The notes under the pieces are model-generated. The model was not told the DNA's origin. It searched no databases and worked only from the letters and a program-made list of their open reading frames with translations. Below, one piece after another: positions 4,804-64,000 of a stretch of 64,000 nt of DNA (position 1 is the first letter of the stretch; every line of letters starts with the position of its first letter). The stretch is from Aplysia californica (lineage: Eukaryota), in NCBI RefSeq assembly GCF_000002075.1, contig NW_004797279.1, positions 126,826-190,825 on the forward strand, in the 5' to 3' direction. A program made the position numbers and the translations under genes.

Positions 4804-5653
4804 TAAGACTTGGACATTCAAAAACAAACTAAAATTAAAACAGAAAGAGCAAACACTTGCATTCAATCTGGTAAAAATGATTAGGTTTAATAGTACCAAA
4901 GACACTCTCTGTAGAAGTCTGCAAGCCAAAAAATAAAACCCAAACAAACAAAAAACAAATCAGGGAAAAAACAGATGACCCTAATCTCTGCTATCACAAC
5001 AGCACATGGTCCAAACTCTTCTAGTGACAAAGCATTTCTGCCATTTGTCTCATAGCATCACTTATCAAGCTCTCTGCCTCAACTGACAGGAAAGCAAATC
5101 ATAACGCCCATGACTGCCCCAGCAACAGGGTAAACTATCAGGATTGTGACAAACATCAGGTAAAAACAAAAGACACAAGAGTAACTATAACTATAACTAT
5201 TCCAAACATATCAGATGTATAGGTAAGTAATACAGCGAGACTGTATCAAATGTTTACAAACAAGGTCCAGTCCAGGGCACTGTAAAATAACAAGAAGTGG
5301 GGCTCATATCAAATCACAGTAAATTGCTCATGTCTGTCTATGGTAATTCATACAATATTCATTCACCCTTAATCTTAATAATATCCAAAGGAAAAATAAG
5401 CACCAGAGAGACCGAGCTACTTTAAAAGACAAAACACTTGAGTAAAACAATTGCTAAGGAAGTCACAGTCAGAACTTTAAAAAACATTCTTCTAAACATG
5501 TCCACAAAGAATAAACAATGCATATATCCCATTGCAACATTCATCATGCATCCAAACCCAATCAAAGAGAAGTTTAAAACAAGAGTATGTCATTTTCTGT
5601 CCCCATACGGCTTGCCTTTCAGATTCAGATCACTGTAGAAAGGTCAAGAGCAT

Positions 5654-5787
5654 TTAAGAAGCAGGTGGTTGAACCTTTCCTTGATTAGCCACTTTCGCTA
5701 CAGCAGCATTAACTTCCTCGTCTGTGGCCAAGTAGTAGTGCTTCACAGGTCTCAAATCTTCTTGCAGTTCATAACAAAGCGGGATGG
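5654..5787 (-). CDS. PGAM: Alternative (distal) duplicated last coding exon of PGAM
   Basis: Acceptor tctttttgtccag|CC in the same phase as exon 6236-6115. Open frame (A)[43 protein letters not shown]. Confidence 0.8.
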
Positions 5788-6114: not shown

Positions 6115-9100
6115 TTATTTTGCTTTTCCTTGGTTGGCCACTTTGGCCTGAGCCGCTGCAACCTCCTCCTCAGAGGCAAGGTAAAAATGCTTCACTGGAC
6201 GTAGGTTCTCATCCAGTTCATACACCAGAGGGATGGCTAGAAGAGAACGAAGAAAAACAAACTTGGAACAAAAAAACAACGATTTCAAATTTAACTCAAA
6301 ACAAAAAAGGCTATTTTAACACATATTGCCATAAAACCATAATCCCAAACATGAATTCAACAGGGATAATCAAACTTCAATCCCGAAAGAACCTTGAACA
6401 TTCTAACTTAACTTTAAAAGTCACTGGCAGGCCCATTTAATGAACACTTATAAAAAAAACCTTTAAAAAAAATTGTATTTAACTTTCCTTGACAAATGGT
6501 ATAGTCAGACGTGAGTGAATGACCCTCAATATTTTTCATAAAATGTATTTTTCAAAATAACTTTGAAATTAAACTTGGATATCTGGAAAAACTGCACTTA
6601 TAAACACTTCCATCTTGTAAGTCAGTCAAAGATCAATTTCGGCACATAAACATACCCTGCAGTTCCTAAAAACAGACAGGACAGCATCCCACAAAATGAG
6701 GTCATTGAAGAACTGTCAAACATAAGACTGTATTTTTTTTTTAAAACAGTAACATATTTATCCCAACATCCTTATCATTCCCACCAGCTAAAAACTAATA
6801 CAGAGAATCAAAACGAACAAGAAAACTTAAACATAAAAAATAACAAGAGAAAAATGTGAAGAGAAGCACTCACCGGTGGGGATGTTGAGTCCCACGATGT
6901 CTGTGTCAGACACGTTGTCCAGGTACTTGATGAGGCCCCTCAAGCTGTTGCCATGGGCAGAAATCAACACTCTCTTGCCAGACTGCCAGGAAAGAGTTAT
7001 TTTCAAATTTATGCAACTTCAGTGAAACGGCTGTTATTCTCAGAGTTATGTGGTTTCAATGAATGGAGAGTTTATTCTCAAAATTATGTGTTTTCAATGT
7101 TTACGCTCAAAAGTTTTTTTGTTTGAAGAAATATCCATTGACCAGGGTCTATACAGTTATGGGTGGGTTCTTTGCCTTGTATGCAAAAGAGTGAGTTAAA
7201 TTTTCATGTGAAGAATTTTCTTTTAACACTTAGAGTACCAAAGGCTCAAAATAGTGAAAACCCTTCAAGTACCGCATCAGTTCAGAACGCTGAAGCCATG
7301 GTAGAATTTTTTTTTATTAAAAAAACCTTGGAAGCCCAAGAAACACGCTTTAAAAATTAATAGAGGTTTATCAACCATTCAGCTATCATATAAAGTGAGT
7401 TCCTTTGGTATTTACTTCAGTGCAGTGCATCCATTCGTTATTTAATTACGTTTAGTGAACCTGGTTGTGTCGGTGACTAAAGTCGCCAGCGGTAGTGAGC
7501 ACATACTACGGCCTGGCAACTAAAGTCATCTTTATGCTTGGATGTAGTCCACTCAGCCCAAGATAGCCCAAGGTCAAAGCAGTTTACTCCCCATGTAAAA
7601 CATTTACAATCATGCAACTACCAAACTATTTCCCAGTGCTTACAGCTGGTCTTAAAAAAACTTCTGTCTCAACACAGTTCTTGACCTAAATTCATTGGAG
7701 GCCCATCTTCCTACTCCTCTGACTCACCCAAGGACAGTGTAGTTGCTGTACTTATGGCAAATAATAACTCTCTATCACACAAAAACATGGAAGCATTGAA
7801 AGTTGCTCACCCTTGATTATTCTGAATTCCCAGTCCGTTTCTTTTTTTTAAATCTCAAGAGGTACAAAAGAGCCATCTTGTTATTAAACCAAATGTATTC
7901 AAATGCAATACTCATGGCAGGCAAGGCATTGTCAGTTCCACAAAATATTTTTGTCCTTGTCCTCTAGATTATTCCTCCTTGGAAATAATATTATTTTCTT
8001 ACATAAAAGCATACTACAATTCTTCCTTCAATTTCCTTCTTTAGTATAATAAACACTGCAAGAAGAATCAGACAATTCATTATTAATTAAAACAAATTTA
8101 ATATTATTCACATAAGCCTGCTTTGAATCAAATCCCATCTACAATGTAAAAAGTAATTTGAGGAGGTTAATCACAATTGGGATACCCTAAAGAACATTTA
8201 AAACGCTAAAGCCTTCAAAGTAAATAATAAATAATAAATAGCATTTGTATTGCGCACGTCCGTACTCGAAACAAGCTCTATGCGTTTTACACTATATTAT
8301 TACCCCTGCAGACCATAGAACACTCAGAAACATTCTAAGCTTCCCAGGAAGCATACAATGCAAGCAGCAGGTTAAGCGCTCAAACACTAACAAACTAACA
8401 AGATCTTTCACTGTCTATAGCTGGGTACCCATTCCCACCTGGGTGAAGTGGGGAAAATTCGTGTAAAAAAAGTGCCATTCCCAAGGACACAACGTCGGGC
8501 CCGTGGCTCGAACCCCTGAACCAGCAACTTCACGAGTACGAGTCCGGTAGCCTATATCATTATGTTGTGGAGTTGTACATGCAGTTCACAGTGACTCAGC
8601 TTAATGATGACTCGATCTCACTACAAACGAATTAGGACACCAGTGGTAATACTGAAAAAAAAAGAAAAACTCCAAGGTGGTCCACTGCTCACTAGGAGGA
8701 AGATTCCAGGCCACAAACAGTGAGACACTAACCTTGATGGCAGGAACAATTTCATCATACCAGAAGGGCAGCACACGTGCCACAGTGTCCTTCAGACATT
8801 CACAGGCTGGGATCATGCCCTGATCCATATTCTGCGGGAATAGGTAACAGTTGGTACAGTGAATATGCTTACTAGACAATAGGGCAGGTGATGTAGAAAG
8901 ACTAAAAAATCTGTAACACGTAACACAGTGACATGACATAATACAATGCAATACTAGCAGTCTAAATTGTAATCAATATATCTGCTCATGCACTAAAGTA
9001 AAGGTTACCTTGCCACATGAGCACAGACCCGTCATTCCACCATACAATTTCCTAATATGATTTTTATCTTTCAGACTTGATATGCCTCTCCTCACTTTAG

Positions 9101-11593
9101 TAATCAACTACACAGCTTTACACATTTGCTACTTAACTGGAACTTGCAACTTTTTACAATGACCCATCTAGCTCAGTCCAATGGTCTTGGTCCATACATC
9201 TCAACAATATTTTTTTATCAGTCAAATTCAAAACAACCAGTTAAAAATTGATACCACACACTAAACATGTACCGATATATTATAATTTATCTCAACATCT
9301 AAAACGATGCCTTCAAACCTATCAATATATAATCCTAAAGCAGACCTGCCACTCTGAAATCTGAAATTTGGGATATAATGAGAGTAAAAAAACAGAATCT
9401 GGTGGAAAAAAATCGGGATCAACGGCAAATCAGTCCAGAGAAGGGAGTGGGTCCCCTTTTGTGGGGCAAGCATGCCAGACGAAACTTTTGCAGAAATAAG
9501 TCCATATTTGGGCCTTAAAGTAGAAGAAAAAACTGAAAGAAAGCATGTATGCGAGTAAAGAGTTGGAAAGACTAGGGGATAGCAGGTTGCAGTGATGCTG
9601 ACATTCTCATAGTCTTACACATAACCCGAATCATCCATGCAATAGGCGCATGTCTTCATTCAGTAACAAAGTTTGACTTCAATCGCGAATATACTCAAGG
9701 CACTCCCCTCCCCCCCCCCCGCCAAAAAAAATCGTGCCATCCTGCACAGCACAGACCCTAGCTCCAATCAAATCTAAAATTTGGTTCCAAGGTTGTGTAA
9801 AATATTTATTTATTACTTGCTCCTTTAGCCTCAATAAGTAGGTGTATCACGTCAAGCACTTCAAGCCCAAGTGTCTGAAAATACCCTCCCCCGGGTCGTT
9901 CCACACTTAAGTCCCAAAAGACACCTCTACCAAGGCCACCATTGTGAAAGAATTTTGCTGACCGTGACAACCAACGGTCCACAGAACAAGCGCTACTCAC
10001 ATGAGGTCATGTCACGTGATGCGAATGAGCGTTTGAAAGTTTCACTGATGGTCTCGACTAACAAGAACTTGGACGAAGCCTGTTTTTAAAGCAACGGCAG
10101 AACAACGGATAACATTGATTATTTTTTAGACCTACATATTATATATAATTGTTACAGTAATCAAGTCATCATCGAAGAATCCTGGGTAACAAAAGCGAAA
10201 GTAGATCTTGAAAGTATCCAAGCTGGAATTCAAAATCAATAATACTTCGGTTCAAATTGAAATAACATGCGTGAGTCAACTACTGGATCCGGTATTGATG
10301 TTTTAGAATATAGCGTTCTAAGTTCCTACTGATAAAAAGTCAAATCAATTCTCTCAAGCAAAAGAGAAAGCAGAAAAAAATGTTGGATTCTTTTTTTCTA
10401 AGAATCGGACACAACAGACGCAACAACAAAAAAATCAGGATACACACTTTCGAAATCGGGGAAAATCAGGATGCTTGAGATTTGGAGCAAAAAATTGGGA
10501 AATCCCGATTAAATCGGGATGAGTGGCAGACTGTTAATTATATAAAACACACTCAAAAGAAAATAATCATAAACTTACTTGAAACTGCTTCATTTTTCCA
10601 GACCAGCGTTCGTCTGTGGGTTCCAGAGCAGGGGGTGGAATATCATAAGAACGTCTCCAGATCTGTCATTGACAGACAAGACAAATTAGAGCTTAAAATT
10701 TTTTTAGTCATTTGTTCAGGTTAGATTTGTTTCTTCACAATAGGTAGGTAAAAAAGGGTGATATGGGCAAAATCATGTCTTTAGAGAATCTTCATTCCTG
10801 AAATCAGGCACTAAAAAGATTGCACAAAACTACAATTACTTGAGCAAACAAGTGATTTTTGCCCTGCCTACTACTAGTACTTAAGTATTCAAGTGCAAAG
10901 ACTTCAACGTTCACACACTCTTGTCACAGGAACAGCACTACATACCTTTACTTGATCTTCTCCATACTTTGCAGCAGTCTCAGATTTATTCAGTCCCTGA
11001 AGACCTCCATAGTGACGCTCATTGAGACGCCAGGATCGGATCACAGGGAGGTAGTGAGCATCCAGCTCCTCCTGAATCAGGTACAGAGTCTTGATGGCCC
11101 TCTTCAGAACACTTGTGAAGGCAAGGTCGAACTCAAAGCCTTGTTTCTTCAAGAGCTAAGGGACACAAAAAGAGAAATCATGAGTATCTAATACTAATAG
11201 TGCAGTAGTATAATGGAAAGAGGTGTATGCATACCAGTGTGATGATGGACAGAACCCTCTATGTTATAACAATATATTTTTTAAAATCACAGGCGGGGTT
11301 AAAGACGGTCTATCTTTCATTTTCTCCTTCTAGATCAACTCTATTGGGGCACCATTGTTAATCACTGCAGCTTCATTCTGGTATCAATTATTACAGAAAC
11401 TTTTGACATAACAGCAAGGCCGTCGTTATTCGGACTCGAGTCCGAATAACATTTTTTCATATTCGGACTCGAGTCCGAATAAAAAAAATTCTTATTCGGA
11501 CTCATGATATTCGGACTCGGGTCCGGAAAAAAGGAAGTGTCTTCGTTCTATAGTTCTAACGTTCAATGCTTCCAATTTTCCGCCATTTTTTAG

Positions 11594-11625
<32 letters not shown>

Positions 11626-38368: not shown

Positions 38369-41300
38369 TCAGTCAATCAGCAGGCCTAGGACATGAGAAA
38401 AAATAAGCTGTGTGGAGCAAATTAAACATTAATACAACGCTATAAATAAACATGTATTTGGACAGTGGAAATCAGAACATGACAACGAGGAATACAGACA
38501 CAGGAAGTGACAATGAGTACAAAGAGGCATTAGGAAATTTCGAGTTGCGTATCTTGTAAACTTCTAAACACAAAAGAGTTATTACTTGCCACGAAGCACT
38601 ATACAAACCATCAACATATTCATAACAAAAAACAATAACATGATCGACGAAGTGTTGCAAAATAATAAATAAAACCCACTTCTCAACCACTTGAGTTTAA
38701 AAGGTAGATTTATCAGTAATAACATCCGGATAATAAAAACCCAGTATGGCTACAAGTTACATTAAAATAACCATTTCAATGATGAACTTACTGTTATTGC
38801 TTCCGTTCTTTTTCTTCTCTTCTGCTGGCGCACGGCCTTCACTTACAAGGAAAGTAAAATAGTACTGCAGTACAAATACATGTCCGTTTCGCCTTTGACA
38901 ATTAATCTCCTCTTCAAGTCAAGAAAAACGTAGACTTCAAAATTATCATCTTCAGCCTCATCAAGCCATGCATTCCCTTTACGATTTCTTTTTGATGACC
39001 TCTCTACTGTACCCCAAAAGAGAATTCCATTGGCATAAGTCCTGCCTTCCCGGCCGTATTGTTTTCAAAGCTCCTCTTGGAGCAGAAAGGTTTGAAAGCC
39101 AAAGGTTTGAAAGCCAATGTCATTTATAACATAACCACTGGTGAAGTGACATTTACCTGACATGGCCGCAGTGAGAAAACACGCCATGACCCCAGAGAAG
39201 AGCGCCCGAGGAGCCACATCAATGACGTCACGTTTCCTATGTGACGTCACAGCAGTCAGGGCACCAACCATCATGCCCAGGGCGAGGAGGTCAGAGAACC
39301 CACACAAGGCGTACGTGGCGATGGTCGCTGACCGCTCCTGGGGGACAAAATACATTAAACAATGTATTTTAAAAAAAAAAAAAATAATAATAATAATAAT
39401 AGATAGCATTTGTATAGCGCATATCCCCGCTCAGCAGCAGGCTCTATGCGCTTTACACTATATTATTACCCCAGCAGACCATAGAACACTCAGAAACATT
39501 CTCAGCTTCCCGGGAAGCATACAGTGCAAGCAGCCGATTAAGCGCTCAAACACTAACAAACTGACAAGATCTTTCGCTGTCTATAGCCGGGTACCCATTC
39601 CCACCTGGGTGAAGTGAGGAAAATTCGTGTTAAGTGCCTTTCCCAAGGACACAACGTCGGGCCCTTGACAGGATTCGAACCCACGACCTTACGGTTGCGA
39701 GTCCGAGAGCCTAACCACTAGGCCACCGACGCCACAATTCTCATTGGAAAATAACAGCATCGCACACAGAACAACGGTGTTACTTGTGGGTCTTGGGATA
39801 GGGAGGGGAATGGGAGGCGGGCGGGAGGGGTGTATGAGGGTTCCCTGTTTTCAGGAGGGATATCAAATCATAGAAGGCAAGAGAAAGAGAGTGGGGGGGG
39901 GGGTAGGTTGCTAATTGGCAAATAAACAAAGAAAGAAAGCCAGACTAAGACAGAAAAGCAGGTAGTCGAATCAGTAGAAGAGAAAAATCAGAGAAGCATA
40001 CGATAGGACAGAGAAAAAAGCCAACAGAGATGAGTGAAACGTTGAAAAAAGAGACGGGCATAAAGACAAATAGGGGTAGATAGACACATAGAGACAGACA
40101 GGTGAAAGGAGACGGAAAGTAGAAAATATACAAGGGGGTAGAAAGAGGGGGGGGGTAGAAGGGGGGATAGAAAGGGGGGGTGAGAGAGAAGCGGGAAGAG
40201 AATTGGGGGCGGGGGGGGGGGGTTAGTGTAAATAACTGTAAAACTGTAAAGACCAGGGCAATGGGGTGTGACGGCAGAAGATATTCGGAGACGTCTCGTG
40301 GGAGCACCCAGGAACTATTCGGAGACACACTCCCGCACACAGCTGCACTGCTTTGGGAGGTCAAACTGCGTATCGTTTGCTGCAGATCACACATATAGCC
40401 ACTAAAACTGTCACAAATCAATTATTTTCTAGAAAATTTCAAACCCAAGTGCAAATTATCAAATAATGGGTTAAATCAGGGGGGTATGCCCCATTGTAAC
40501 CCCCAGATTTGTTTTACTTGGTCTAGAGGCACAAAGCATTTTGATTGGTCTATCTCCATCGGAGACATCTCCGAATATCTTCTGCCGTCACACCCCATTG
40601 ATACCTAGATACTAGGTTTATATATGGTAACGCACCGGATACATTAGGGTACTATTTCGTTAACCTTTTGTGGACACACACTCTGACTATTCGACAACAC
40701 TTGAAGACTCACTGTTTTGGGGTACTTAAATCTAAATAACTTCATTATTCATACATAATGATGATGCTTTTTTTATATGAAACTTTCTGACTTTTGTATC
40801 ATCTTTCAAGTGAGCCACAACATGGCCTTTGATTTTCTGTCGCATGTATGTGACCGTCAAGTCTTTAAAGAGTTGTTTTTTTAAAGGGTTATTTTTACCA
40901 TTGTGTTGTTGTATTGCCAGTGGGTAATTTGACTTCTGAAATAGTTCGACTACGGCCAACAACTGCTGGGTTTTTTAAAATTATATTATTGTAATAACTA
41001 AGCAGTTAAAACATACTTACAGACATTACACCACCTTTCAGGACGAGACCAGACATGTCCAGGATGACGTCATCAGTTTGTGTCCACGACCAAGTTGCAT
41101 TTGGCAAAACTGTTGTGTAGTTCAAGAGAGCTACGTTGTTAGAGCGTACCTGGAAGGAGCAAGTTGTTGAATACATGAGAACCTCCATACAGAAGTACCA
41201 CACAAGGCCAATATGGTCGTTCATTCCGAGACTTGCAAACGAGAACGTACAACGGGAACTAATTTCTTAACTTTTCTGCTGACTAATGAGGAAATAGGGG

Positions 41301-44300
41301 GTGCCAACTGGCACGACCGGTTTGGTTCGGTTCGGTTTGGTAGGCGGGGCTAGCCAGATGCAGGGCGCAAAGCGACCATTGTGGCACAATCCGATCGCAC
41401 GACTCGCAGCCTCAAAAACATACGCGTTTATTTTCAGGCCGCGAATTGGGCGCTCGGTTTGTCGATCCCTCAAGGGACACTGGGTATACCAGACAGATGA
41501 AGTGCGGGGACTCAAAGGTCTCAACCAGCAAGATCATAGAGAATCTGGTACTGCCTTCAGAAAAGGTTTGTGCTTTATACATGTATGTGAGAGAGAAAGT
41601 GAGATTGAGAGAAAGAGAAACAGAAAAACTGTACTCGATTTTTTTTTAAAGACACTCAGACAAAAGGAAGAGGGGATACTAGTTATTAAACTGACTATTA
41701 AATTCAGTACCATTAATTTTTATGCGATAACTCTTTGAATTCTTTTACCAAAGACACTGCTGTACAGAGAGAACAGATCTAACGGCATGTGGTTCTGGCT
41801 TCTCAAAACCTCAAACAAGCAAACGTAAAGTAAAAAACTAGGACGTCTAAGCACAAAGACGGGCAACCAAAGTCTTGCTTGGAGCTGCTCTTACCTTGCC
41901 AAGGTCCTCAAAGGCAAGGAACTCATTCACAAACACCTTGACACCCAACATCCGGGCCACTACGCGACAGTCGTCCGGTACCACGCCCATCAGGAAGGCC
42001 ACTGGCCACAATAAGTAAGAGCTGATGAACTGTGGGTACGTAAGGTTACAACATTTAAAACTTAGAACACATAGGTTCTTTCGAAATGCCCACATAGGTA
42101 TCCCCCTTCCCATGGTGCGATTAAATAGTGTTGACTTCAGGGGCAACTCCGAAAATTGGTTATCACACATTCAAACATATCCCTACCTTCATTCCTCTTC
42201 CCTTTCTATGCATCCCGATACACAAGTTGTACTGTAATAGTAACGTAGTCAGAATCAATCTCTTCATTTTGTGGCCCTGAGGGCAATTTCCAGCCACGTG
42301 TCAAGCAGATTTTATTTTTATATCTTTAAAGCTCTGTTATCAATTAAAGTTATTTGGCTCGCCGTACTCTTTGTTAAAGGTGTATGTTCCCCGCAAGGAA
42401 TTAGACAAGTCCTATTTACCTGGTTTGTAAACAGCCCGTAGATTGCCTGAAACTTTCGCAGCCTCCAAATCATTATATATGCGTGGGTCACTTGACACAA
42501 TCTCTGACAAAAGCACTTTGTAAAAGGAAATGGGTGGACTGTAACATGAAATGCCTCACAACAGCTGCACTGATAACGGGGAGAGACGAAATCTGACGAG
42601 AAACCGTGATCAAGAGAGATGTCACTTTACATTAGAGGGCAGTATTCTGCGTAACATCCCGTTCAAACGCAAACAGCAGAGAGATCTGGCATGATAAAAT
42701 AAGACACAAATGACATGTTTAGAAACTCAATGCAGAAGAAATAGATCTAGTCCTTTTACATAAATATGTTATCCTCCCCATCCCTTATTTTTAAAAGTTT
42801 TAAATCGTTTGATCTTCCAAAAGAAATCATACGATCCTCCAAATGAAATCGCATGAAATTCCAAATGGAAGACTCACATATGACTTCACAATAACTTATT
42901 TGAAAACTCCACGATATTCAGTCACTCAACAGCAATCCCTTGTAATCGAGCTGATGTACCTGAAATGAGAGCACCGGGTAGTTTGGCGGTGCGATGCCGA
43001 CCCGCGCTCCGAGCCAGGCCAGGGTATCGTTGATGAAGTCCAAGATGGAGAGGAAGGCTATGGCATGGACCAGGATGTAGGCGATGAGAGGTATGGCACT
43101 CACGGCCCCGGCAGAGGCCGCCTCGATCACACCACTTGTTGATCTGAGATATGAGTGAAAGTTGTGGGTACGGTTTCTTTTGTCAAATTTGGTATTTTCG
43201 GGTGCGTGTGTGTTTTAAAGGATTGCTGTACAATGAATGGGCAGGAATGCATAGAACGTGCCAATGTGTATGCAGTCGAAATTTTACTGTACATGTATTG
43301 TGAAGCGCCCACAGGCATCAGGAACAGGGCCAATAGAATGTTTTTTTAGAACGGAAACCCCGGGATGGGGAACCACATCTTCAATAATCATTATGTTCCT
43401 CGCTAATAGCATCTATTCTAAAGACGTTCTTGACCATTAAAGCGTCGTGAGGAAAATATTTAGCTGTCTGCCCAGGATTTCGATAGAGTTAATTAATTAA
43501 AGGCAATAAAGTCGAAATCATCCAAGACGGCCACCCATTGTCGAGGAAAAGAGTGGTTTGCATAGACAGGTGGACGTGAATTATAATTCATAAAAAAGCA
43601 GGGACGTGAGAAATGGTCGTCTGTGCAGGTGATATTATCTTGGACAGATGGCCGTTTAAGCAGGTTCGACAGTAGATCTTTATATTATAATCGGAGTGTG
43701 CAGATTTTAATGTTTCCCTTTATACCAAATCCGTTACTCTTCAACGAGTCATCATTCAGTTTTGACCCATCTAACATGGACCAAACCCACCAGGACCCAC
43801 CTGGGTATAACCGGCGCCTTCTGTTTTCGTCGACCTGGAACATTCTCTGGGTAGAACAGTTTTCCCATCGCCAGAGCAGCAGGGGCAGACATAAAAGAGG
43901 CAGAGATCAGGTGGTTGGCTGGCGCCTGTAAGGTGGTGCAAAGTGCAAGGGGGCAAAGGCGGGAGGGGATGTCACTAATGTCAGGGTTTGATAATATGTT
44001 GATTGGACGTGTTACTATCGCCATGAGACTAATCATGGCGTTTTTTGTTCTGTTTGTGACCCCCACCACTCAGCGGTGGCAAAGAATAAAGCACAATTGC
44101 ATAGTGTTTATAGGTCTTTTATGAATATCACCCATTTACTGTGATGATATAGGTAGATATAACTTATTATTTCTGAATAAACTTCGAAAATGCATCACTT
44201 TTTCAAAATTACCTGTAGATCTATTCATCTTCTGAGAACATGTTTACCTCAAGCATCATTCTAAAATAGCCCTTCAAGTAAACAGATTGGCAGACAAATC

Positions 44301-47300
44301 GACTGGACGCGCCATTAATTCCTGTGCTTTAGAAACCTGTCATCTTTTTGCATGGGGGGGGGGGCGCTTACCCCATAGAGTATATAGGCGGCCATCGCGC
44401 CACCGGAGACTGTGGAGAATCCATTGGTCATGATGGCGTGTAGCTCTGACTTGGTCATCTGGTCCAGCAGTGGTTTTACAACAGGGATTGTCTCCGCCTG
44501 AAAGAGGTCATAACGTAAAGTAGCCTAGTCAGTAATTGGGAGTTTCTATGCTCGTGCTCCGTCTTTTTATAATGCAATATAATATCAACTATTACAGAGA
44601 ACAAAAACTACAATTGTAGTATGCCTTAATGATTATGTGGTCACAAAAATGCCTTCATTCTTGATTTTATTGACTGTGTGTTGTTGTCATTTCAATACTT
44701 ATGTGACTGCAAGTGACGTAATGTTGTTGATGATGTTTTTGCTTTGGGAATGGCCTTATTACCTATGCTTATGTGCTTCTTCTTCCTTCACCCCCTTCTT
44801 TTTCTCCTCCACCCACCCCCCTTCCCACAACAAACAAAATGCTTTCTTTCTCCTTGTTCTCCTCGGAGTCTTTCTCCTCCTGCCCAATGAACAACGAACT
44901 ACACAAGTGCGTGGTGGTGGGGGGGGGGGGGGGGTTGGCGGGTGCACTGATGTGGTTTGCTCCTTTTTTCCTATCAAACATCTATTGTCCTTATCTCTCC
45001 TCCCTCTTTGTGTTTGTTACTCTCTTTTTTTTTCTTTTTTTTTGGGGGGGGCGCTGCTCCTGCGGCGACAAGGTCGTGTTTGCATGGGTCCTGGAATTTT
45101 TGACAGGTAGACCACAATATGTGAAGCGAAACAACACAAAATCTGACACAATTCTTTGTAACACCGGCGGTCCTCAGGGGTGTGTTTTGTCACCAGTTTT
45201 GTATACTATATATACCAACGATCATAGAAGTATATATAAAACAACACGCTTAATTAAGTTTGCAGATGACTCCGCTATTATTGGATTAATAAACCATGAT
45301 GAAAAAGAGTATTTCGAAGAAATATGTAGGTTTTTTAAATGGTGCAACTCAAATTTTCCAAAAGTGAACCTCTCAAAAACAAATGAAATGATTTTTGATT
45401 TTAGAAGAGAAAAATCAACAATCCCACCACTCGTAATTGAACAAGAAACTATTGAAATCACGGATTCATGCAAATATCTTGGCCTTACAATAGACAACAA
45501 ATTTACATGGCAAAACCACGTAAACAATATCGTTAAAAAAGTAAATCAGAGGCTGTACTTTCTGAGGAAACTTAAGTCTTTCAATCTGAATCCATCCATC
45601 CTTCATTTTCTACACCACCACAATAGAAACTTTGATAAATTTTGGAATCACTTGCTATGGTAGCAATCTGGGAAGGCAACACATTATAAAACTAAATAAG
45701 TTGATAAAAAAGGCATCAAGAACAATTGGTAGAGACCTAAGTAACTTTGAATATCTGCACAAGACAAACGTTCTAAAAAAAGACGGAAATAATGCTTAGT
45801 GACCATAGCCACCCACTGACATCGGAATTTCAACTATCGACCCGCAGTAAACGATACATTTCCAAAAAAGCAAGAACAGACAGATATAGAAATTCATTCG
45901 TACCAACTGCAGTGAGGTTACTGANNNNNNNNNNNNNNNNNNNNNNNNNNNNNNNNNNNNNNNNNNNNNNNNNNNNNNNNNNNNNNNNNNNNNNNNNNNN
46001 NNNNNNNNNNNNNNNNNNNNNNNNNNNNNNNNNNNNNNNNNNNNNNNNNNNNNNNNNNNNNNNNNNNNNNNNNGTCCCAGCCCGTGAGACATGTTTTTAC
46101 TTGGCATAATGTCCTGTCTTGTTGTGCGTTTGCGTGAGTGCACCTTTAAGTCTAACTTTTGTAAGCCATTGTTAACGACCAAGACAAATTTCTCCCTGCG
46201 AGATGAATAAAGATTGTCATTGTCATTGTCATTGTCATTGTCTAATCTTCGTCACTTATATTACCTAACTGCACTGCAAGTGCCGTAAAACGCTTACTAA
46301 GAAAATAAAACGACCCACATGACACTTACCCATCCGACAAAGATGTTGAAAGCGGCGTGCAGCGTCTCCATAGGTCCTGTACCCAGACTGACCCTGATTA
46401 TGTGTGTGATGGCGTCAATGGCGATCTGCATGGCGCCCAGGTGGTAGAGCACGCTGATGGTAGAGCTGAACACAATGATGGTGGACATCACCTGGGTAGA
46501 CACACGTGTACAGGAACTCACGATAGTTGTTGATGGTGCTGGTTTTGGTGATGTCATTGTTGCTATTTGCTGTTGTTCTTATTGTTGTTGGTGGTNNNNN
46601 NNNNNNNNNNNNNNNNNNNNNNNNNNNNNNNNNNNNNNNNNNNNNNNNNNNNNNNNNNNNNNNNNNNNNNNNNNNNNNNNNNNNNNNNNNNNNNNNNNNN
46701 NNNNNNNNNNNNNNNNNNNNNNNNNNNNNNNNNCTGTCGTTAATGCGTCGTTATTTGGTTTTTGTGGAGGTCGAAGTGGCTTTAATTGTTATGGTTGATG
46801 ATGTAGCTATGAACATCCTGAAATGTAATGTCGTGTAAAACTTAGGCAAACATCTTCACCCAAAAAAGGGTGGGGCTACAGCTGTTTGTGGTGGATGTTT
46901 TTAATTGGCCATAGTGGTTTCGCTTCTTTTGTTTCAGCTGTTGTTTGTGTTGTGCATTGAGCCGGGGACGGTGGAACAAGTGATAGGTGGATAAATCGGA
47001 CAGTCAGTAGGCTTAGGAAAGTTGTTGTGATTATGTGTAAGAAGTGCTCGTCTTGCTTGAATTGGGTTTTGGGTTGTTGTTGCTTGTTGTTTTTGTGGAG
47101 GGTTTGGTTTGGGTTTTTTTGGGGGGGGGTGTGTTGGGTTTTTGTTTTTGTTTTTTGCCAGTTCATTTCTCAGTAACAATAATACAAAAGAAACACGAAG
47201 AAATATATATGAAAGGTGGATATAACGAATGAAGCGTCAACTGATTTACGCACCGGATACCACCCCCACCCCCAAAAAAAATAAATATTAAAATAAAATA

Positions 47301-48544
47301 ACCCTACAAAAAAAAAAGGCTTTGAACCCTAGTTCTCATTCAAAATAAATACAATAAATGAATAAAAACAATTCAAGTACGAGTAAAAGACTTGAAAGGT
47401 ATTTTGCTAGCATTTTACTCACCCTGAAAGCAAAGAAATGGTCTCCATAGCTCTTGCCGAAGACGAAGCTTGTCCCCTTGTCTGTATGGTCCAAGTACTC
47501 AGTGACGCGGTCAGCGAGCCACTGTGGGAACGTCCGGGGATTCCCCGTGTTATAATTTGTACTGGCTGTTGTTGTCGTAAGTGTAGTTATTGTTGGCTCC
47601 AGCGNNNNNNNNNNNNNNNNNNNNNNNNNNNNNNNNNNNNNNNNNNNNNNNNNNNNNNNNNNNNNNNNNNNNNNNNNNNNNNNNNNNNNNNNNNNNNNNN
47701 NNNNNNNNNNNNNNNNNNNNNNNNNNNNNNNNNNNNNNNNNNNNNNNNNNNNNNNNNNNNNNNNNNNNNNNNNNNNNNNNNNNNNNNNNNNNNNNNNNAG
47801 TCCAGTACATGTATTTTGTCGATTTCGAAATCTAAGGAAATGGAGCTCGGGGGAAGTTTTTTGAATGGACCAATCCACCTCGGAAGCTGGCAGCTTAGAT
47901 CCTGCCTATCAGGGTTATCCCTGGCTGAGTGGGATACAACACTCTTGCACAGAGACGGAGATGCACGTACTAAAAAAGTATACTTCCCCATTCGGGAATC
48001 GAATATTCACATTTTCTTATGTAACAGCGAAGAGCCTAACCACTACACAGCTGACGTCAGTGTAAACTCTTCGGAACATTGCCACAGGTTGAACTCAATA
48101 CTTTCAAGAACAGTGAAACCAGCTCTGACAATCACTTGTAAAGGATATATCCATTCGTACAAATGGCCACTTCCCATTTTCTCCCTTGCGTTTTTAGTTA
48201 CAGGTACATTATATAATGACACTGTGTAAGACGGCCACTTTTCTCCTCGACAATGGGTGGCCGTCTTAGACAATTTCGAGTGTACCTACTTGAAAACTGG
48301 CGTAACCCCAGCGTGTCCGAAGAACGAGCAGGCCGAAGACAAACTGCAGAAGCAAGCCCCATACTACGGGCCGCCAGCGCACCTGTACAGAAAAAAATGT
48401 AAGGGGTAGGTGTGGAATGACTTCTTGAATTCACTAACTGTGTTATTGAAAAACATTATGTTGAAGGATTTATAGTTCGCAGAATATCATACAATGTATC
48501 ATCATATTCATTTCAAAGTAAACCTCTTATATAATATGTCTTCT

Positions 48545-48623
<79 letters not shown>

Positions 48624-51492
48624 CCCCTCTCCCTCTTCCCCTTTCTCTCTTCTTCTCTGTCTTTGCCCCCCCCCCTCCTTTTCCCTCTCCTTCTCCTTTT
48701 TATTTTTTCAAGATCTTAATAACCCCTCCTCTCCCTTCCCGGTTCGCAACATAAATCTGCAATCCCCCCCCCCCCCCAAACCCACTCCTTTCCGCACCCC
48801 CCCCCCCCCTCACCTTTCCCGGGTCCTTAGAAAGACAGAACATGAGGGCCACAAAGACCAGCACTCCCAGCGCCGAGATCAGGTTCCGGGGTCGACTCAG
48901 GGCTGTGTCCACCAGGACGTACAGCACCAGTGACGTCATCATCAAGGAAAGAGCTATCCTGAGGAAGGAAGACATAGAGACGATAGAAACACATGTACTG
49001 TACACTCAGGTGTTATATAAATATTCCCTGGTTGACAAAAACTCACTTTAATGTTGATGTTTCAATACAAATAGGTCCCATAAGTGCTGAAGATTGAAGA
49101 GCAAAATACAAAGGAAAAAGGAGGGGAGATAAAGTCAATAGATGTTTGACAGAGAAAAAGGGAGCATTGATCCACACCAGAATACCCACCAACCACCCAC
49201 TAATAGTACTGATCTAAGAAGCCTTAATTTAATAAAGCAAAGCCCCGAGGACACATACTTACCAAACTTTAGTTGTTGTACAATGTTCAGAGCAGATGAA
49301 ACCATCGTATGGATCAATAGCAGCAGAGTAAAAAAATCTACTTTGTAAGTTGTTTACGAGACAACTCAGTTGATGCGCCAGTTTTATAAGAAAAATTCCA
49401 TGAGGCCAGCCAAGGGAATGTTCATATACGACATATAGATCTATAAATAATATAAATAATGTGCACCTCGCCTGCCAGTTGCTGACTTCAACTAATGAGA
49501 GGTATAAATCAATCAACATGTTTTTCCTTCTTTTCCTTTTCTAATAGACGCTCACGTGACCAGTAGGCATTGGGAAGGAAGTCTTGGTTTTCGATAGTTT
49601 TGATTACAAAAGCCGCGACGCGCCTACAGCCTTCCTCTTCCTCATTAATAACGTCCTCCTCTTCCTCTTCCTCTTTAACAATGCCCTCCTCTTCCTCCTC
49701 CTCCGTCTCTCGCCTCTCGCCCTCCTCCTCCTCCTCCTCCTCCTCCTCCTCCTCCTCCTCCTCCTCCTTGTTGCCCCCCTCCTCCTCAACGTCTATACTA
49801 CGCAGGTAGACCAAAGGGGTTTATTTTCTTCTTCTCATCGTGCAGCTTATCTTTACATTCAAGACATTGTTTTTTCTCTTCCAGGGTGAAGACATAACAT
49901 TCTGTTTTAGAAAGTTTGTGTACTCTCTACAGTTTCGCCACTCTTTCGGCAGGCGATTATAAATTCCATGTCCAGACACATACGTACTTAAATTTGTTCA
50001 CAAACGATTAGTTCTCAAAGGTAATAATAATTATATGAGAGGCAAAACATTCAGAACAATATAATTTGCTCAATGCATCACGATCTCGAGCTTCCACCTA
50101 CTGCTGTTAGTTCTAGCGCCCACGAAACAGCTCTAGACGCTTAACGTCTTCGAGTTGGCCACTCACAACTAACTCTTGACGTGATGCTCAGTAAAAGTAT
50201 CGTCTTGTTGTTCTTCTTTTTTCTTCAAGAGAATATAAGTAAGCAGAAACATTTTAAGGGGAAAGGGTAGTATGTATTATACAATAAAAATGAGATTATA
50301 AGTTTCATAGCGTTCACCCAGAAATATTTCGTCCAGAGTGCCCTTATCAAAATGTATAGAAGCGGAAAAGGGTAGCATAAATGCGAACAAAGGAAAGGAA
50401 GCAGAAATACTTTTCTTTGGTCCAAACAAATGAAAGTTTGGCACAAAAAGATTCCCAAATACCTTTAGAAAGGCGGGGCCTCACTTACATTTTGTTCCAG
50501 AAAAACAGAGGTTCAAATCAAAGGAAAAAGTTGAAGTCTAAGCAAAAAAAGCTTAACGTAGGTAACTCACGCGTAACTGCTAGCATAATATGTTGACCTT
50601 TTAGCAAGCTGCCCCAAGACGACCACCATTACTTTTTACGTTAACAAGTTAATTAGGCCACAAGTGCACTATAAGACTCATGTATTCAAACATGGACAGA
50701 CCTCTAAACTGTGTTCGTGGGTCGAAAAGGGTGAGTGGTACATCGTTATCAATTCAAATGTTTATACATTTATACTAATTTGTCCAAAGTCGTGCAGACG
50801 AAATTTATAGTCTGAAACCAGCATGTTACTTATGAGTCCGCAGCACAAAGACCTACCCACTAAGAGTACCAAAGAATAATTTCAATCAAAAAATCAGCAG
50901 ACTTCCTCAGAAGTCAGAGAGTACCTAATATTGCTCACAACAAACCGGCTACATTTTATTAGTTGCGAGGTTCCTGCACTGTCTCAAGGCTGTACTCACT
51001 GTGTGTCTAAGACCATTAATTGCTTCCATGTGTAACGAAGCAAGTCTTGCGGAAATTGGGGAAGTTTGTGGGGGGCGGGGGGGGGGACATAGTTCATTAA
51101 CCGTTTCCTAGCACTTCGTGAAGACGAAAAAGTCAACGCGAAGAGACAGGGTAACCCGGTCCTGCACTGTTTGCGTGCACAATAGCTGGTAAAGCACCTG
51201 GTTTCGCTTTGCCCCAGCAACTCAAGATTTTCAAACGCTGAAGCAAAGCAAGATCTGAATGAGAGAACAGACAGTGCATCACCTTGATGTGGAAGTATCT
51301 GGCTATAAACAGCGAAAGATCTTGTCAGAATGTTCGTGTTTTAGCGCCTGTAGAATAGCAGCTTGCACTGCATGCTTTTAACAAAAAGCTGACATTGTTT
51401 CAAATGCTACTAGGTCCGCTACTTGGGGGGGGGGGAGCAGTAATATGTAGATAGTAAAGCCCTTACAGCCTACTGTAGAGCGGGAACTATAA

Positions 51493-51556
<64 letters not shown>

Positions 51557-52572
51557 GTAGTAGTAATGAATAATAATGATAATAATATTATTAACATTAA
51601 TATTATACAAAAATATACATATCAATGTACAATGTACACGTAGATATGTAATGGTTGTGTTTTCCGTTTTCCTCTTCGACAAGTCAAGAACAAAAGAACT
51701 TTCTGCCACAATTGGTTTGATTCGACGCTTTTAACCCCTTCCTCCTCCCTCGTCCCCCATCGTTTCCCCTTTTGTAGACAGGCCGCATTTCTCGTCTTTA
51801 ATTATTGAATAGAGATAATAATAAGACTAGTCTCACATCCCTNNNNNNNNNNNNNNNNNNNNNNNNNNNNNNNNNNNNNNNNNNNNNNNNNNNNNNNNNN
51901 NNNNNNNNNNNNNNNNNNNNNNNNNNNNNNNNNNNNNNNNNNNNNNNNNNNNNNNNNNNNNNNNNNNNNNNNNNNNNNNNNNNNNNNNNNNNNNNNNNNN
52001 NNNNNNNNNTTCAAGGTTGTTGAGTTCGGACGTTAAATTAAATAACGCTTATGCAACAGGCATTTAGACTTCGATTTTCTAAAATATGAAATCGTGCTGA
52101 CTCAATCTGGCAGAGGCGTCCAAGTATGTACTTACCAATATATCCTTGATTTTGTTTTGGGCGAGAATGGACTTGAGATGGAGGAGCAAGCCTTCCTAGC
52201 CGCCATCCCCACGTTAGGAGATAACTTGGAGTACAGACAGGCCACAGTAAGCACACATGACACTGCCAATAGCGTCACAGACTGTTCATCACCGAAAGAA
52301 TGATGGAAGGCAAACCCGAGATATACACAAAGTCCAATGAAAAACAGGAGTTGCAGAACGTTTGACACGGCTCGTTTGTGTGTGGAACAACAGGAGATTA
52401 CATTTTGACGACATCCCAGTAGAACTGACGTCACTTTGGTCGGTTGCATGTCCTCGGTGTGGGAACGTTCCGCGCCGTCCTCAAGGCCGACCATGTCCAC
52501 CATTTCCTCAGCGTGAACACTTTTGTCTCCTCCTGCCTCCACATCATAACTATTACGCGTATTTCCTTTCAT
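38369..52572 (-). CDS. SLC28 family concentrative nucleoside transporter-like protein, ~610 aa
   Basis: Twelve GT-AG exons in consistent phase: 52572-52136, 48958-48814, 48382-48290 (VRWRPVVWGLLLQFVFGLLVLRT), 47521-47423, 46491-46330, 44497-44372 (MTKSELHAIMTNGFSTVSG), 43925-43801 (HLISASFMSAPAALAMGKLFYPE), 43143-42960, 42029-41895 (GVKVFVNEFLAF), 41149-41021, 39337-39157 (ERSATIATYALCGF), 38385-38369 (GLLID*). Minus-strand AATAAA near 38190. Confidence 0.94.
39384..39735 (-). mobile_element. tRNA-derived CORE-type SINE (family B), near-identical to 26061-26398
   Basis: Very high identity to the copy at 26061-26398, so a young family. (TTA)n tail. Confidence 0.9.
40259..40600. mobile_element. 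MITE with ~39-bp terminal inverted repeats
   Basis: CAATGGGGTGTGACGGCAGAAGATATTCGGAGACGTCTC ... GAGACATCTCCGAATATCTTCTGCCGTCACACCCCATTG. No obvious TSD. Confidence 0.85.
45083..46242 (+). mobile_element. 5'-truncated Rex1/Babar-like LINE (RT domain) in an SLC28 intron
   Basis: FLTGRPQYV..NTGGPQGCVLSPVLYTIYTND..KFADDS..KYLG..QRLYFLRKL..RYRNSFVPTAVRLL. Frameshift near 45600. AATAAA followed by (ATTGTC)n tail. Confidence 0.88.
49630..49790. repeat. (CCT)n-rich simple repeat
   Basis: Direct inspection. It accounts for the poly-E/S/L/R ORFs in the track. Confidence 0.85.
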
Positions 52573-53349
52573 ATTTTGGTATCTCAGTAGACTTTCAAAC
52601 GAAGCAACACAAATAGCAATGAAACTTGTTGTTATTATTATTTGGGATTTTTTTTTCAGAAGAAAAAGTGTTCCAATATTTCTTTGCATGGAAAAAAAAC
52701 GTTCTCAACAGAAAGAAATGGACATTGTTATAACAGTGGTTGTACCGCACAATAGCTGCGATGATAGGAGAAGGCTGCGCACGCTTGTTCTAATGAATGA
52801 GGTAAGAAACTGTTTGGAAATATCATCAATTGTCAGAACACGTATGCCATTCTGCAAAGCTGCAACATATAATGTCTTGCTATAAGAACAATGAATTGGC
52901 GGTTGTTGCACCGGAGATGACAACGTTACTTGGCTTCACAAATTCATCTTTTGACAAATTTGCAGTAGTTAGTGATGCTATCGCCAGTGTAAGGTTAAGG
53001 CATTCACTTTCTACAGTCTTGCTAAAGTAACAACAAAATGAAAATGATTTTGAAAACACACACAACAAATAACAACTGTCTTTTAACACTCATGGAAAAT
53101 AATTGCCGATATCAAGAACAGAAAGTATGATGATAAGAGAGAAGTCATGATTTGCAATGCCAAACGAGGGATACTGCCTGCAATGTTGATCATAATATCT
53201 GTATTGAAATGAGAACCTCCTTTTCATAAATAAAGCGAAAATAATCTCGTGTTTAGGTTATATTTTTAATATACACTATCTATTCGTCACCATGTAAACC
53301 ATATTATGTAAAGTAATTTATTTTTGACTATGCATACTATGACATGGCA

Positions 53350-60292: not shown

Positions 60293-60899
60293 CTCAGATG
60301 GGTTGTGGTTCGTTAACATGGAATCGATGATGACTAAAGCAGTATGCATGATACAGCTTGGACTGTGCGGTAAACGTAAGTGAACGTAGATTGTCTTAGC
60401 AATATATTGCTTCTTTCTTCCCTTCAGATCTTGATTTCCTTGATAGACAGATATATTATATATGTATACACAATAGGAAAGACATTGAATTTTGTTCTAC
60501 ATTTATTTATAAACAAGAGGTAGCGAAACAAATGTACAAGTATAAAATTGGTTGTGGTGTTACTCTCTCAGTTTCAAAAAAGTCGCATTAAGTACATCTT
60601 TGAGCTTGGCTATTTCGTTCACCGGGCATACATCTTCCTTCCATTGCAATTAAAGAAATGTTATGTGAGCAAATGTGTCTCCTGATTACATTATATTTAT
60701 AGAATTAAATTTTGTCTTCTGCGGAGACGTTGTAATTGTAAGGCCTTGCGCACACTAAGAAGATTTCCACTCGCCGCTCGACTACGAGTTTGAAAACAAA
60801 GCAATGTTCACCCGTTCTCGTCTCTTCACAGCCAAGTGCCGTTATACTTGGCAGCCGTGCGACAAATATGTAAATTTAATTTGCATAGGGTATGCGAGG

Positions 60900-61435
60900 C
60901 AAAACTTTAACAGTTTTTCAGAACCTAAACCCCAATATTCTTACCACACGGATTCTAAAGTAATATAAAAGTCACACGTTTCGGTCATATTATTATTGTA
61001 GGAACTATCAATGATCTGCTCTTCACACAAATGTTTTGGGGACAATAATTTCGGCAGACTTTCGTGACTTCTGTTTTTGAAGTGTTTATTCTCCCACAGG
61101 TGTTGTTGACTTCGGCGGTGTGACTTGGGAGGTTTTATAATATAATAAAGTTCTTTGGTGTGTTGAATGAGATACAGGTCGTCTGCAAAGAGAAATTCAT
61201 TTTAGCTTTTTTGAGTTTTAGTTTAGGTCTTGTGTTATTTTGTCCCCATAGATAAAACACGTCCATGTTGTAATCCCAAAGTACTGTGAACCAGTTTGTG
61301 TTGCCTTTTTTCGTTCTTATTAAGCTTCCGCTTTTGGTGTACAGAGCTCACGCGTCGTCCAGTGATTATCCTTTGCTCTAGTGTTTTCCATAGTTTGCCA
61401 CAGCGGACTCTGCCAAAAGCCTTCTCCTGACCATC
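60900..61435 (-). mobile_element. Highly degenerate non-LTR reverse transcriptase relic
   Basis: Fragments EKAFGRV..KLWKTL, GLQHGRVLS, NEFLFADDL and INTSKTEV in the expected order, with frameshifts. Confidence 0.6.
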
Positions 61436-61707
61436 ACTTTTCCAAATAAAAGTACCGTGTTATGTACAGCTTTTAAAAATGTGCTAAATAACAGTGTCAT
61501 TCACATGTCATGTACAGCTTATAAAAATACCTTGAGTTCCGAGGTTCCAAGACTTACTGGAAGCAACGTACTGCAAGCTATACCTATATTTGTTTGAGCA
61601 AAAGACGTTATGGAAATGGAGTTGTTGAATAAAAGATTTACAGCCAAGAATGCTAACTTATAAAAATGCATATCGTGCTAATCTCATCACATATCGTTAT
61701 AAAGGAA

Positions 61708-63780
61708 TCACATGGTATTTTGCATTTCATTGGCTGGCCAATTGGTTCGCGCTGTCTCCATCTCTTCTGGTGTTGCCAGGAAGTAATGTCTTATCGGGTG
61801 GAGATCCTCGTCCAGTTCACACACTAAAGGTATCGCTGAGGACAGAAGAGACAGTCGGGGCACTCAGATTTGGAACAGAACAATGACTGGACAACAGCAA
61901 AGTTGAGGGATTTACGCTACACGGTGTATCTTGCACAAGTTGACAAAACCCAAAGTTTAGCTATATGACAAGAAAAGACTTTTTTCAGTACATGTACAAA
62001 GTAAAACGAGCCATATTAATTGAATAAATCGTTATCGGTCAGTGTTACTTCTTGGTATTACCTTTGAGGGCCTATATCTGGGGTTAACGAAGAAGAGCAG
62101 TTCTGGACAACTTAGTGCGCGAAGTGGAATCTAAAAATAAGGACTTCTATAAACAAAAAAGCATTGTTAAGTTGCCTTTGAGTTCTACTGAGACGTGAGC
62201 GAGCAAAATAAAGGCAAATTTTCGAGAGATACGAATGAATCAATAGTAACACTTAAAAGACAAAAAAGGAGCAGACCATACCAGATGGCCTGCCAGATAC
62301 CCACGTAAGAAAGACACCCCCCCCCCCCCCCCCCCAAACAACAGTGGCAATCAGGCGCGGTTCGTCCATAGAGCACGGTCGTGCAGTGCCGCCCAAAATG
62401 TTTTAATGTTCTATGACGTAAAGCACCCACAATAATAAAATAAAAGACGCCAGAAACAAACACTAGCCAAATATTATATCAAAACAAGGCCTTCGCTGGC
62501 GCCGTAACTGTTATTTCTATTCTATAGCGCCGTAAAACATATTCTACTATGCCATACCTAAGTTCATGCGCTGCATCTAAACATAACAGGATAGTCAACA
62601 GTGGAAACCTGACCTATAAATCGCTCTTTGGGATAACCCAAGCGATGACGACACGTGTAGAGAGTTAGGCGGTACATTAATATTAATAAGACGGCACATC
62701 TCAAATGTGCTCCTGCCTAAAGCGCCGAAACATAGCCCACAGTAGGCAATCTAAAAATAAACACCATAGACTGTGCACTATTCCATGCCAAAATTATGTG
62801 GGTCTCGGAGCAATCCAGCGGAGTGCTCAAGTGAATTGTGATTGGTTCATTGTCTTGTCGCTATTTTAAGTGACTCTGTGACCGTGAACCTGAGGGAGGT
62901 GAACGTGACATACTTAAGTCGCCGTCCTATGAGTTGTGCTTTTGAACGGTTTGGTAGTGGAGTGGTGAAAGGTATTAGTATTACTTGAGTGTTCAGTTTT
63001 AATGCAGGATGAATTAAATTACGTTTAGCTAACAAACAGATTTAGTTCTAGAAGTCAAAGCCACAAATAAAAAGAATGAAAATAAAATCACAAGGTCTTC
63101 CTTCACCAACCCAAAGATCCTAAAATTATACACCTTCCCATTTATTCTGCCTTTGATTATCTTCAGCCTAAGATAGCTTAATTGTGCACGTCCACTTTTT
63201 AGACCCACGAGCCGCCCCTAGTGGCAATATCTGCATCAATAGCAGAAACAATATGCAAGTACAATCGACAAGCGATGTAGACTACTATTGAACTAACACA
63301 ATCAACAGTAACGGTAGCAGCAGCAGCAACAGCAACAACAAAGAAAACAACAACAGCAACAACAGCAACAACAGCAACAACAGCAACAACAGCAACAACA
63401 GCAACAACAACATAACCGGTTCGCATTCAACACCAACCCGGTACAGAGAACACGCACAATGGTGTGCGCCTAAAAAATACAGTCAACATTTGTCTAAGAC
63501 AGTCATCCACTGTCCAGGGGAAAAGTAGTTACCTTGGACTGGTGGGTGAATTATGTAGTGTCACTATATAATTCTTTAAAATACGCAAAGGTGCAAATGG
63601 GACGTGGCTTTCTACTAGTGGCCGTTAGAGCAGATTCGACTGTAGACAGAAGATTCATATTAAAGACTAACCGTTGGGCATGCGGAAGTCTGAGCAGTCT
63701 GTGTTGGACAAGGCACCAAGGTGAGTGATCAGTCCCCTCAGTGTGTTCTCGTGAGACGCTATGAGCACCCGCTTGCCGCT
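61708..63780 (-). CDS. Second, divergent phosphoglycerate mutase-family paralog (last two coding exons; 5' part beyond window)
   Basis: Exon 63780-63672 (109 nt, same length and phases as PGAM exon 6982-6874; cag|..|gttagt): SGKRVLIASHENTLRGLITHLGALSNTDCSDFRMPN. Exon 61835-61708 (ctcag|): AIPLVCELDEDLHPIRHYFLATPEEMETARTNWPANEMQNTM*. Confidence 0.88.
63316..63410. repeat. (CAA/CAG)n simple repeat, representative of many microsatellites in the window
   Basis: Direct inspection. Other runs include (CT)n 14711-14756, (ACAT)n 15207-15262, (GTT)n 16320-16373, (TCTG)n 18115-18235, (TAA)n 51493-51555. Confidence 0.85.
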
Positions 63781-64000
63781 CTGGTGACAGAATGGTCCTC
63801 ATAACTCAAAACTGCATTGAATTTTTACCTTCAGAAATTGATACATAGATTCATCAAAATTGAACAAACGGTACACAGACGAAAAACTGCCCATTTTCCG
63901 TGAACCTCAATGTGAACAAATTGTACCTTTTTTTTTAGGAAAACATCTGCATATATGCACTATCTCTGTATTATTTTAATTCACTCCGTCAAGAACAAGA

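Follow-up and report, generated by a model that had tools for sequence, protein, structure and literature searches.

An intact second dPGM paralog in Aplysia californica with glutamate after its second catalytic histidine and a replaced C-terminal tail

The window analysed here is a stretch of 64,000 nucleotides of the Aplysia californica genome (G000:C9:126826-190825). It contains a canonical 2,3-BPG-dependent phosphoglycerate mutase gene (dPGM; gene A) and the last two exons of a second gene of the same family (gene B). Between the two lie a nucleoside transporter, a gene with a fibrinogen domain and a serpin. Exons 1-4 of gene B were read from the neighbouring contig stretch and are also given in continued window numbering. 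The features are as follows.

3066-4386 (minus strand) and 44734-45663 (plus strand): non-LTR retroelement-type fragment(s), RNase H PF00075 / RVT_1 PF00078
5654..5787, minus strand: a further candidate for the last exon of gene A, ...KVANQGKVQPPAS, with an ag acceptor and the same phase as the 6236-6115 exon
6115..13219, minus strand: gene A, canonical dPGM of 251 aa, identical to XP_005089803.1 (P0268)
13219-13088, 11155-10946, 10662-10579, 8831-8733, 6982-6874 and 6236-6115, minus strand: exons of gene A
17424-17834, minus strand: serpin exon (PF00079)
34687-35974, plus strand: fibrinogen C-terminal domain exons (PF00147), apparently adjacent to or within the transporter gene's 3′ end, on the opposite strand
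39065-52704, minus strand: concentrative nucleoside transporter exons (PF07662, TIGR00804), between genes A and B
61043..61707, minus strand: gene B 3′ UTR, minimum extent, from one spliced X8 contig
61708..61835, minus strand: gene B exon 6, coding part and stop, starting after ag, with the tail ...TNWPANEMQNTM and without the QGK motif
63672..63780, minus strand: gene B exon 5, 109 nt, residues 177-213, carrying His186-Glu187-Asn188 and Arg209 (six-frame scan, exon reconstruction and spliced contigs)
63748..63750, minus strand: Glu187 codon GAG; Gly in 286 of 287 close homologues
63781..64000, minus strand: part within the window of gene B intron 4 (715 nt), from the CT..AC joint of 715 nt
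G000:C9 191419-191321 (64594-64496), minus strand: gene B exon 4, beyond the window end
G000:C9 192340-192257 (65515-65432), minus strand: gene B exon 3, beyond the window end
G000:C9 193232-193023 (66407-66198), minus strand: gene B exon 2, beyond the window end
G000:C9 193945-193811 (67120-66986), minus strand: gene B exon 1, beyond the window end

The reconstruction confirmed gene B as a dPGM paralog with six intact exons, of which the last two are those of the window. Its exons (135, 210, 84, 99, 109 and 128 nt; 132, 210, 84, 99, 109 and 122 nt in gene A) joined into a 254-codon frame, and the five introns were all gt-ag with phases as in gene A. Exon 5, flanked by ag...gt and running from phase 0 to phase 1, translates as SGKRVLIASHENTLRG, and exon 5 of gene A (6982-6874) has the same length and phases. 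This agrees with an earlier note on this DNA, which had matched the two exons to PGAM by intron phase and the 109-nt exon also by length. On the minus strand, the six-frame scan placed SHENTLRG at 63756 and TNWPANEMQNTM at 61746, and for gene A the canonical AHGNSLRG near 6955 and KVANQGKAK near 6144. The two changes that the note had described were thereby found to be real: AHGNSLR has become SHENTLR, with the second catalytic His kept and the following Gly turned into Glu (GAG codon 63750-63748), and the Lys-rich tail KVANQGKAK has been replaced by TNWPANEMQNTM. The start, the stop and all ten splice sites are intact, as had been claimed for the frames and splice sites, and the upstream exons, whose recovery had been proposed as a check, were found beyond the window, intact and with the RHG and NERHYG motifs. 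RHG corresponds to R12-H13-G14 in exon 1, with His13 as the phospho-accepting histidine.

When the gene A protein was used as a tblastn query within 183 kb, exons 5 and 6 of gene B were matched with E values of 1e-7 and 1e-6. Together with the four upstream exons in order and the shared gt-ag introns and phases, these values indicate that the matches were not due to chance. Loose contig ends at the exon 5 edge matched the coding part of exon 6, and AATAAA signals were present near the 3′ end of the gene at 61085-61090 and 60502-60507. The 254-aa product is identical to P0002 (XP_005089807.1, XP_012938015.1, XP_012938024.1 and XP_012938028.1 of Aplysia californica), so gene B is real and already annotated, as a plain 2,3-BPG-dependent mutase. 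The gene had been called hidden, which is true of the ORF track, from which it is absent, and not of RefSeq, which already holds it as XP_005089807.1. The proteins of genes A and B share about 60% identity (154/256 columns), and the automatic name 'phosphoglycerate mutase' thus covers two very different Aplysia genes, which serves as an annotation warning.

A third PGAM C-terminus had also been proposed for the locus. At the level of sequence it exists, gene A having two candidate last exons. The IPLCYEL...ATDEEV pattern of the 5654-5787 exon resembles the C-terminus of the environmental protein P0136, a likeness which suggests that alternative last exons may be old in the lineage. In addition, RefSeq isoform X2 of gene A (XP_035825665.1, P0135, 229 aa) has a different first exon upstream of 13219 on the minus strand and no RHG motif, and so, if made, it would be catalytically dead. 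The genome search with the gene A protein gave 12 matches, all of them exons of gene A or gene B, and a separate genome search for iPGM gave no match. Exons of other branch-1 histidine phosphatases were seen elsewhere in the genome (L014, L019, L020 and L021), which may be those of TIGAR, PFKFB, UBASH3 and PGAM5.

Evidence of splicing came from assembled contigs. In those of X8 and X10, from one study, and X6, from another, the 715-nt intron 4 was skipped at its CT..AC ends; these are presumed RNA runs, and the three of them are all of the RNA-like runs that were compared with exon 5. These contigs presented 0 differences in exon 5, with SHENT unchanged, and continued into exon 6; those of X8 and X6 also extended into exon 3, and the X8 contig joined exons 1 and 2. 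The intron-skipping joints show that gene B is spliced, and the confirmation of expression that had been asked for was thus obtained in three RNA-like runs from two studies. Since spliced contigs from two studies carry SHENT unchanged, a sequencing error and a plain pseudogene are both excluded as accounts of the gene, and with 0 differences in exon 5 in X8, X10 and X6 an error was ruled out as the source of Glu187. In X1, an unspliced run, the four listed differences of the five on the contig were all intronic and none was listed in exon 5. Two results speak against broad expression: X9 covered exon 1 and not exon 5, and X21, the one raw poly(A) run compared (1,499 million letters), showed next to no depth on the exons, as read for gene B alone. 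The run search returned no RNA run on record as carrying gene B, and much of the word share consisted of intronic repeat. High-copy repeats lie in introns 5 and 3 of gene B (L022:1946-3150 and 4838-5319) and dominate the read and contig matches.

We then compared the two genes over 240 codons. Synonymous sites were saturated (pS 0.80) and dN was about 0.30. Gene B differed from gene A at 19/99 conserved columns vs 77/149 others (p 1.8e-7). Columns counted as conserved when they reached 90% conservation or more in a set of 287 homologues 200-300 aa long, which is redundant and was picked by similarity to B. In simulations of a neutral copy, the frame stayed open in 84, 1, 2 and 0 of 2000 trials at 0.1, 0.3, 0.6 and 1.0 substitutions per site, respectively. 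Among the differences listed between individuals, at least six were coding, of which four were synonymous and two were replacements at variable sites. The intact frame and splice sites, the constraint on conserved columns, the spliced contigs and the open-frame simulation rule out a plain pseudogene.

The residues that define the family were retained. PMC3169400 names the side chains around the transferred phosphate, of which B has R12, N19, R64, E91 and H186, as well as six residues that hold the phosphoglycerate, all present in B as T25, G26, Y94, K102, R118 and R119. Counting residues named there or invariant beside them, the 13 key positions (these eleven, H13 and N188) are all kept. B scored 327.6 bits against the PRK14115 dPGM equivalog profile (cut-off 305; gene A 397.1) and 311.9 against TIGR01258 (cut-off 81.7), and in Pfam it was matched by PF00300 (branch 1) only, with no match to a branch-2 profile. 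The model of B (pLDDT 89.9) has a predicted standard dPGM fold, with a best structural match of Z 37.9 and an rmsd of 0.9 over 229 residues; a helix begins at residue 187, and tail residues 245-254 fall below a pLDDT of 50. The ESM Atlas gave nothing for B beyond dPGM. At the sequence level, gene B belongs to the dPGM family, and two of its features are non-canonical.

Around this core, B departs from the consensus at 17/99 conserved columns, against no more than 15 in any of the 287 others, whose median is 2. The departures comprised 11/27 conserved columns after residue 176 vs 6/72 before it (p 4e-4, with the boundary set after looking); judged by these columns, the active-site rim of B is remodelled, with the changes clustered in the C-terminal third. 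At columns more than 97% conserved, the residues changed are G187, K195, D198, I205, Y218 and Q249. Neither Glu at 187 nor Arg at 209 occurred in any of the 287 close homologues (0/287 each). N209, which in simulated PGAM1 forms a bond with 2,3-BPG (PMC5355328), is Arg in B. According to PMC3169400, the Gly that follows the second His touches the phosphate through its backbone N, so Glu187 would keep this contact, and its charge may be engaged in a salt bridge with Arg209. The QGK tail motif, present in 208/270 rows of at least 240 aa, is absent from B, and 12/287 homologues, some of which may be partial, end before the tail. PMC3410420 reports, second-hand from Walter 1999, that mutase activity is lost in connection with deletion of the C-terminal region, and also gives, for human PGAM1, a kcat raised by almost 50% after substitution of three tail lysines. 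Given that rise and the 12/287 homologues that end early, loss of basic tail residues proves little by itself.

To place the His-Glu pair, we counted the residues at the second His in 157 domain rows, those with a residue at that position among 208 domain rows of 150 diverse representatives plus B. His-Gly was found in 87, His-Ala in 20, Ser-Glu in 13, His-Glu in 9 (B included) and other pairs in 28. Six of the nine His-Glu rows read GHEN(N/A)LR, four of them tied by their source names to stramenopile algae. This stramenopile dPGM-like clade (P0391, P0392, P0424, P0399, P0439 and P0448) has fixed GHEN(N/A)LR, (E/N/D)(I/L)PRA and Ile for Thr25, and its multi-domain relatives carry His-Ala in one domain and Ser-Ser-Glu-Asn, without a second His, in another. 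The His-Glu-Asn of this clade refutes the idea that Glu after His is unique to B. In the tree, whose bootstrap had not fully settled, the six algal rows formed their own clade (100/98) and B fell with gastropods (100/99), which together with the intron phases common to B and gene A rules out an origin of B from the algal clade. The backbone contact, the His-Glu rows and the separate clades indicate that His-Glu is tolerated structurally and arose at least twice. Arg at 209 or 212 accompanied 7/9 His-Glu rows vs 3/77 His-Gly rows, these rows representing only two independent origins.

Within gastropods, B nested among the dPGMs (100/99, in a tree that included no BPGM row) on an end branch of 0.75-1.23 changes per column vs 0.004-0.05 for gene A (four trees). 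A sister position to gene A (p-AU 0.13 and 0.050) and one to the second copy found in freshwater snails (Lymnaea and Physella; p-AU 0.215 and 0.212) were both compatible with the data, neither being rejected. With residues 95-254 of B as query, the next best match had about 55% identity among the best 120 of 1683 matches, and a 40-residue exon-5 query gave no matches, missing even B itself, and is uninformative. Scored against both genes, the 150 representatives showed no marked preference for B over A (best ratio 1.07), and the homologue searches turned up no His-Glu orthologue from another animal; because sea hares are thinly sampled, this absence is weak evidence.

Taken together, we give about even chances to gene B still acting on phosphoglycerates as a fast-evolving isozyme, likely a weak mutase with a raised bisphosphoglycerate-phosphatase leak. 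The 13 residues kept, the equivalog score, the model, the constraint on conserved columns and the splicing suggest that it is still a phosphoglycerate enzyme, although the retention of residues is in part due to constraint early after the duplication. The 17 departures, 11 of them after residue 176, the Arg at the 2,3-BPG-bonding N209 and the loss of mutase activity tied to C-terminal removal suggest that it is weakened. Loss of the cap or tail favours phosphatase leak, as known from work in yeast. In such an enzyme, His13 would be phosphorylated by bisphosphoglycerate in the pocket of Arg12, Asn19, Arg64 and His186, with Glu91 as the putative acid-base. Glu187, at the start of its helix, would retain the backbone contact, its charge maybe neutralised by Arg209, and loss of the QGK cap would leave the phosphohistidine and the intermediate more exposed to water. 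Glycolytic flux would be carried by gene A, so that B could drift or adjust cofactor levels in certain tissues.

An ordinary, full-strength mutase isozyme restricted to a tissue or stage, in which Glu187 and the new tail are simply tolerated, is unlikely, though several observations suit it. The catalytic set is complete and the equivalog score lies above the cut-off; the Gly acts through its backbone N and only 87/157 diverse rows have His-Gly; and full strength may persist because the tail is replaced rather than removed, lysine substitution raised kcat and tail-less homologues exist (12/287). The end branch of B, at least 15 times longer than that of gene A, and the changes at columns more than 97% conserved argue against it. 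So does a co-expression result from the supplement of PMC8195618, in which XM_005089746.2 belongs to the glycolytic module of Aplysia sensory neurons with a membership of 0.81, and XM_013082574.1, also labelled PGAM2, falls in another module with 0.04 (p 0.72); from accession offsets, these would be the transcripts of gene A and gene B, respectively.

The earlier note had suggested a pseudo-enzyme or a change of substrate, and neither is favoured by the 13 residues kept, the backbone contact, the algal His-Glu-Asn and the kcat rise on lysine substitution. A dead or nearly dead subunit or scaffold, pairing with the gene A product or other proteins, seems to us quite improbable. The Glu side chain beside the pocket could repel the anionic substrate and kill activity, and with the loss of the cap turnover could be blocked. 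According to PMC13527375, mammalian PGAM subunits heterodimerise, and residues 201-210 give PGAM1 roles that do not depend on its activity; no other stretch of B is as much changed as this one. Catalytic residues are usually lost in pseudo-enzymes, however, and B has lost 0/13 despite saturated synonymous sites.

We judge it very doubtful that gene B encodes a phosphatase, or a synthase of bisphosphoglycerate, in which Glu187 serves as an additional acid-base. In branch-2 histidine phosphatases, the Asp of the His-Asp motif stands at the position equivalent to Glu187. His-Glu-Asn is fixed in the separately arisen six-member stramenopile clade (100/98), Arg at 209 or 212 is enriched in the His-Glu rows, and the genome, with no other dPGM-family gene and no iPGM found, would have no separate BPGM. 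Against this, the 7/9 rows amount to two origins with Arg at different positions, the presence of Glu91 makes a second acid unneeded, the phosphoglycerate-specific residues are all kept, and B is nearer to PGAM1 (50%) than to BPGM (41%) and matched in Pfam by branch 1 only. Neofunctionalisation is further weakened by the backbone contact of the Gly, the independent stramenopile His-Glu-Asn and the 12/287 homologues without the tail. Finally, the very long branch, the low and patchy coverage with next to no reads on exons in X21, and the lack of an orthologue found in another species would suit a gene long constrained that has recently lost its function and begun to decay, which is highly improbable given the intact frame, start, stop and ten splice sites, the splicing in two studies and the four synonymous differences among the six listed.

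As a mere weak isozyme, B would add another divergent paralog to glycolysis and be of little significance. If His-Glu-Asn and the Arg shift the balance of mutase, synthase and phosphatase activities, A and B, alike in exon layout and pocket, would be a natural pair for testing the role of the residue after the second His and of the cap, and the result would extend to the algal subfamily. No title or abstract about gene B was found in the literature on Aplysia and phosphoglycerate mutase that was searched, most subscription papers lying outside it.

Among known systems, B is most like the dPGMs themselves (EC 5.4.2.11; TIGR01258, PRK14115; human PGAM1/2 and Aplysia XP_005089803.1), with which it shares the fold, the 13 key residues and a score above the cut-off and, with gene A, the six-exon layout. 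It differs from the canonical enzyme by Gly187Glu, Asn209Arg, Lys195Thr, Asp198Gly, Tyr218Cys and a tail without Gln-Gly-Lys. Freshwater snails likewise have a diverged second dPGM (Lymnaea CAL1546134.1, whose accession comes after that of the canonical gene, on a contig of equal length, and Physella XP_059141984.1), but this copy keeps His-Gly-Asn and the QGK tail on a branch of about 0.35. These snail copies (P0088 and P0127) carry one extra residue close to the substrate loop (GFAHD), and that of Physella has Thr for Asn19. The stramenopile GHENNLR proteins (Ectocarpus CAB1119401.1, Mayamaea GKY98613.1, Fibrocapsa and Vaucheria) resemble B in His-Glu-Asn, a nearby new Arg and a non-QGK tail, and carry 12/13 key residues vs 13/13 in B. 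In contrast to B, they form a separate clade, with Arg at 212 and not 209, Ile for Thr25 and N-terminal extensions. The literature provided no assay tied to the GHENNLR motif, on which the assayed diatom cpPGAM1A (PMC11371179) may bear.

Vertebrate BPGM offers a parallel: it arose by duplication of a dPGM, its fold and phosphohistidine chemistry were preserved, and the balance among the three reactions is shifted. These are the three reactions of dPGM-family enzymes (PMC13527375). B is less similar to BPGM (41% identity, E 1.4e-59) than to PGAM1 (50%, E 3.9e-74), and any likeness would be convergent. It is doubtful that the combination of a Glu behind the second His with a newly gained Arg in loop 209-212 and an exchanged tail represents a recurrent switch from mutase to bisphosphoglycerate phosphatase or synthase, arisen once in the sea hare and once in stramenopile algae; if it does, gene B would be an invertebrate convergent counterpart of vertebrate BPGM.
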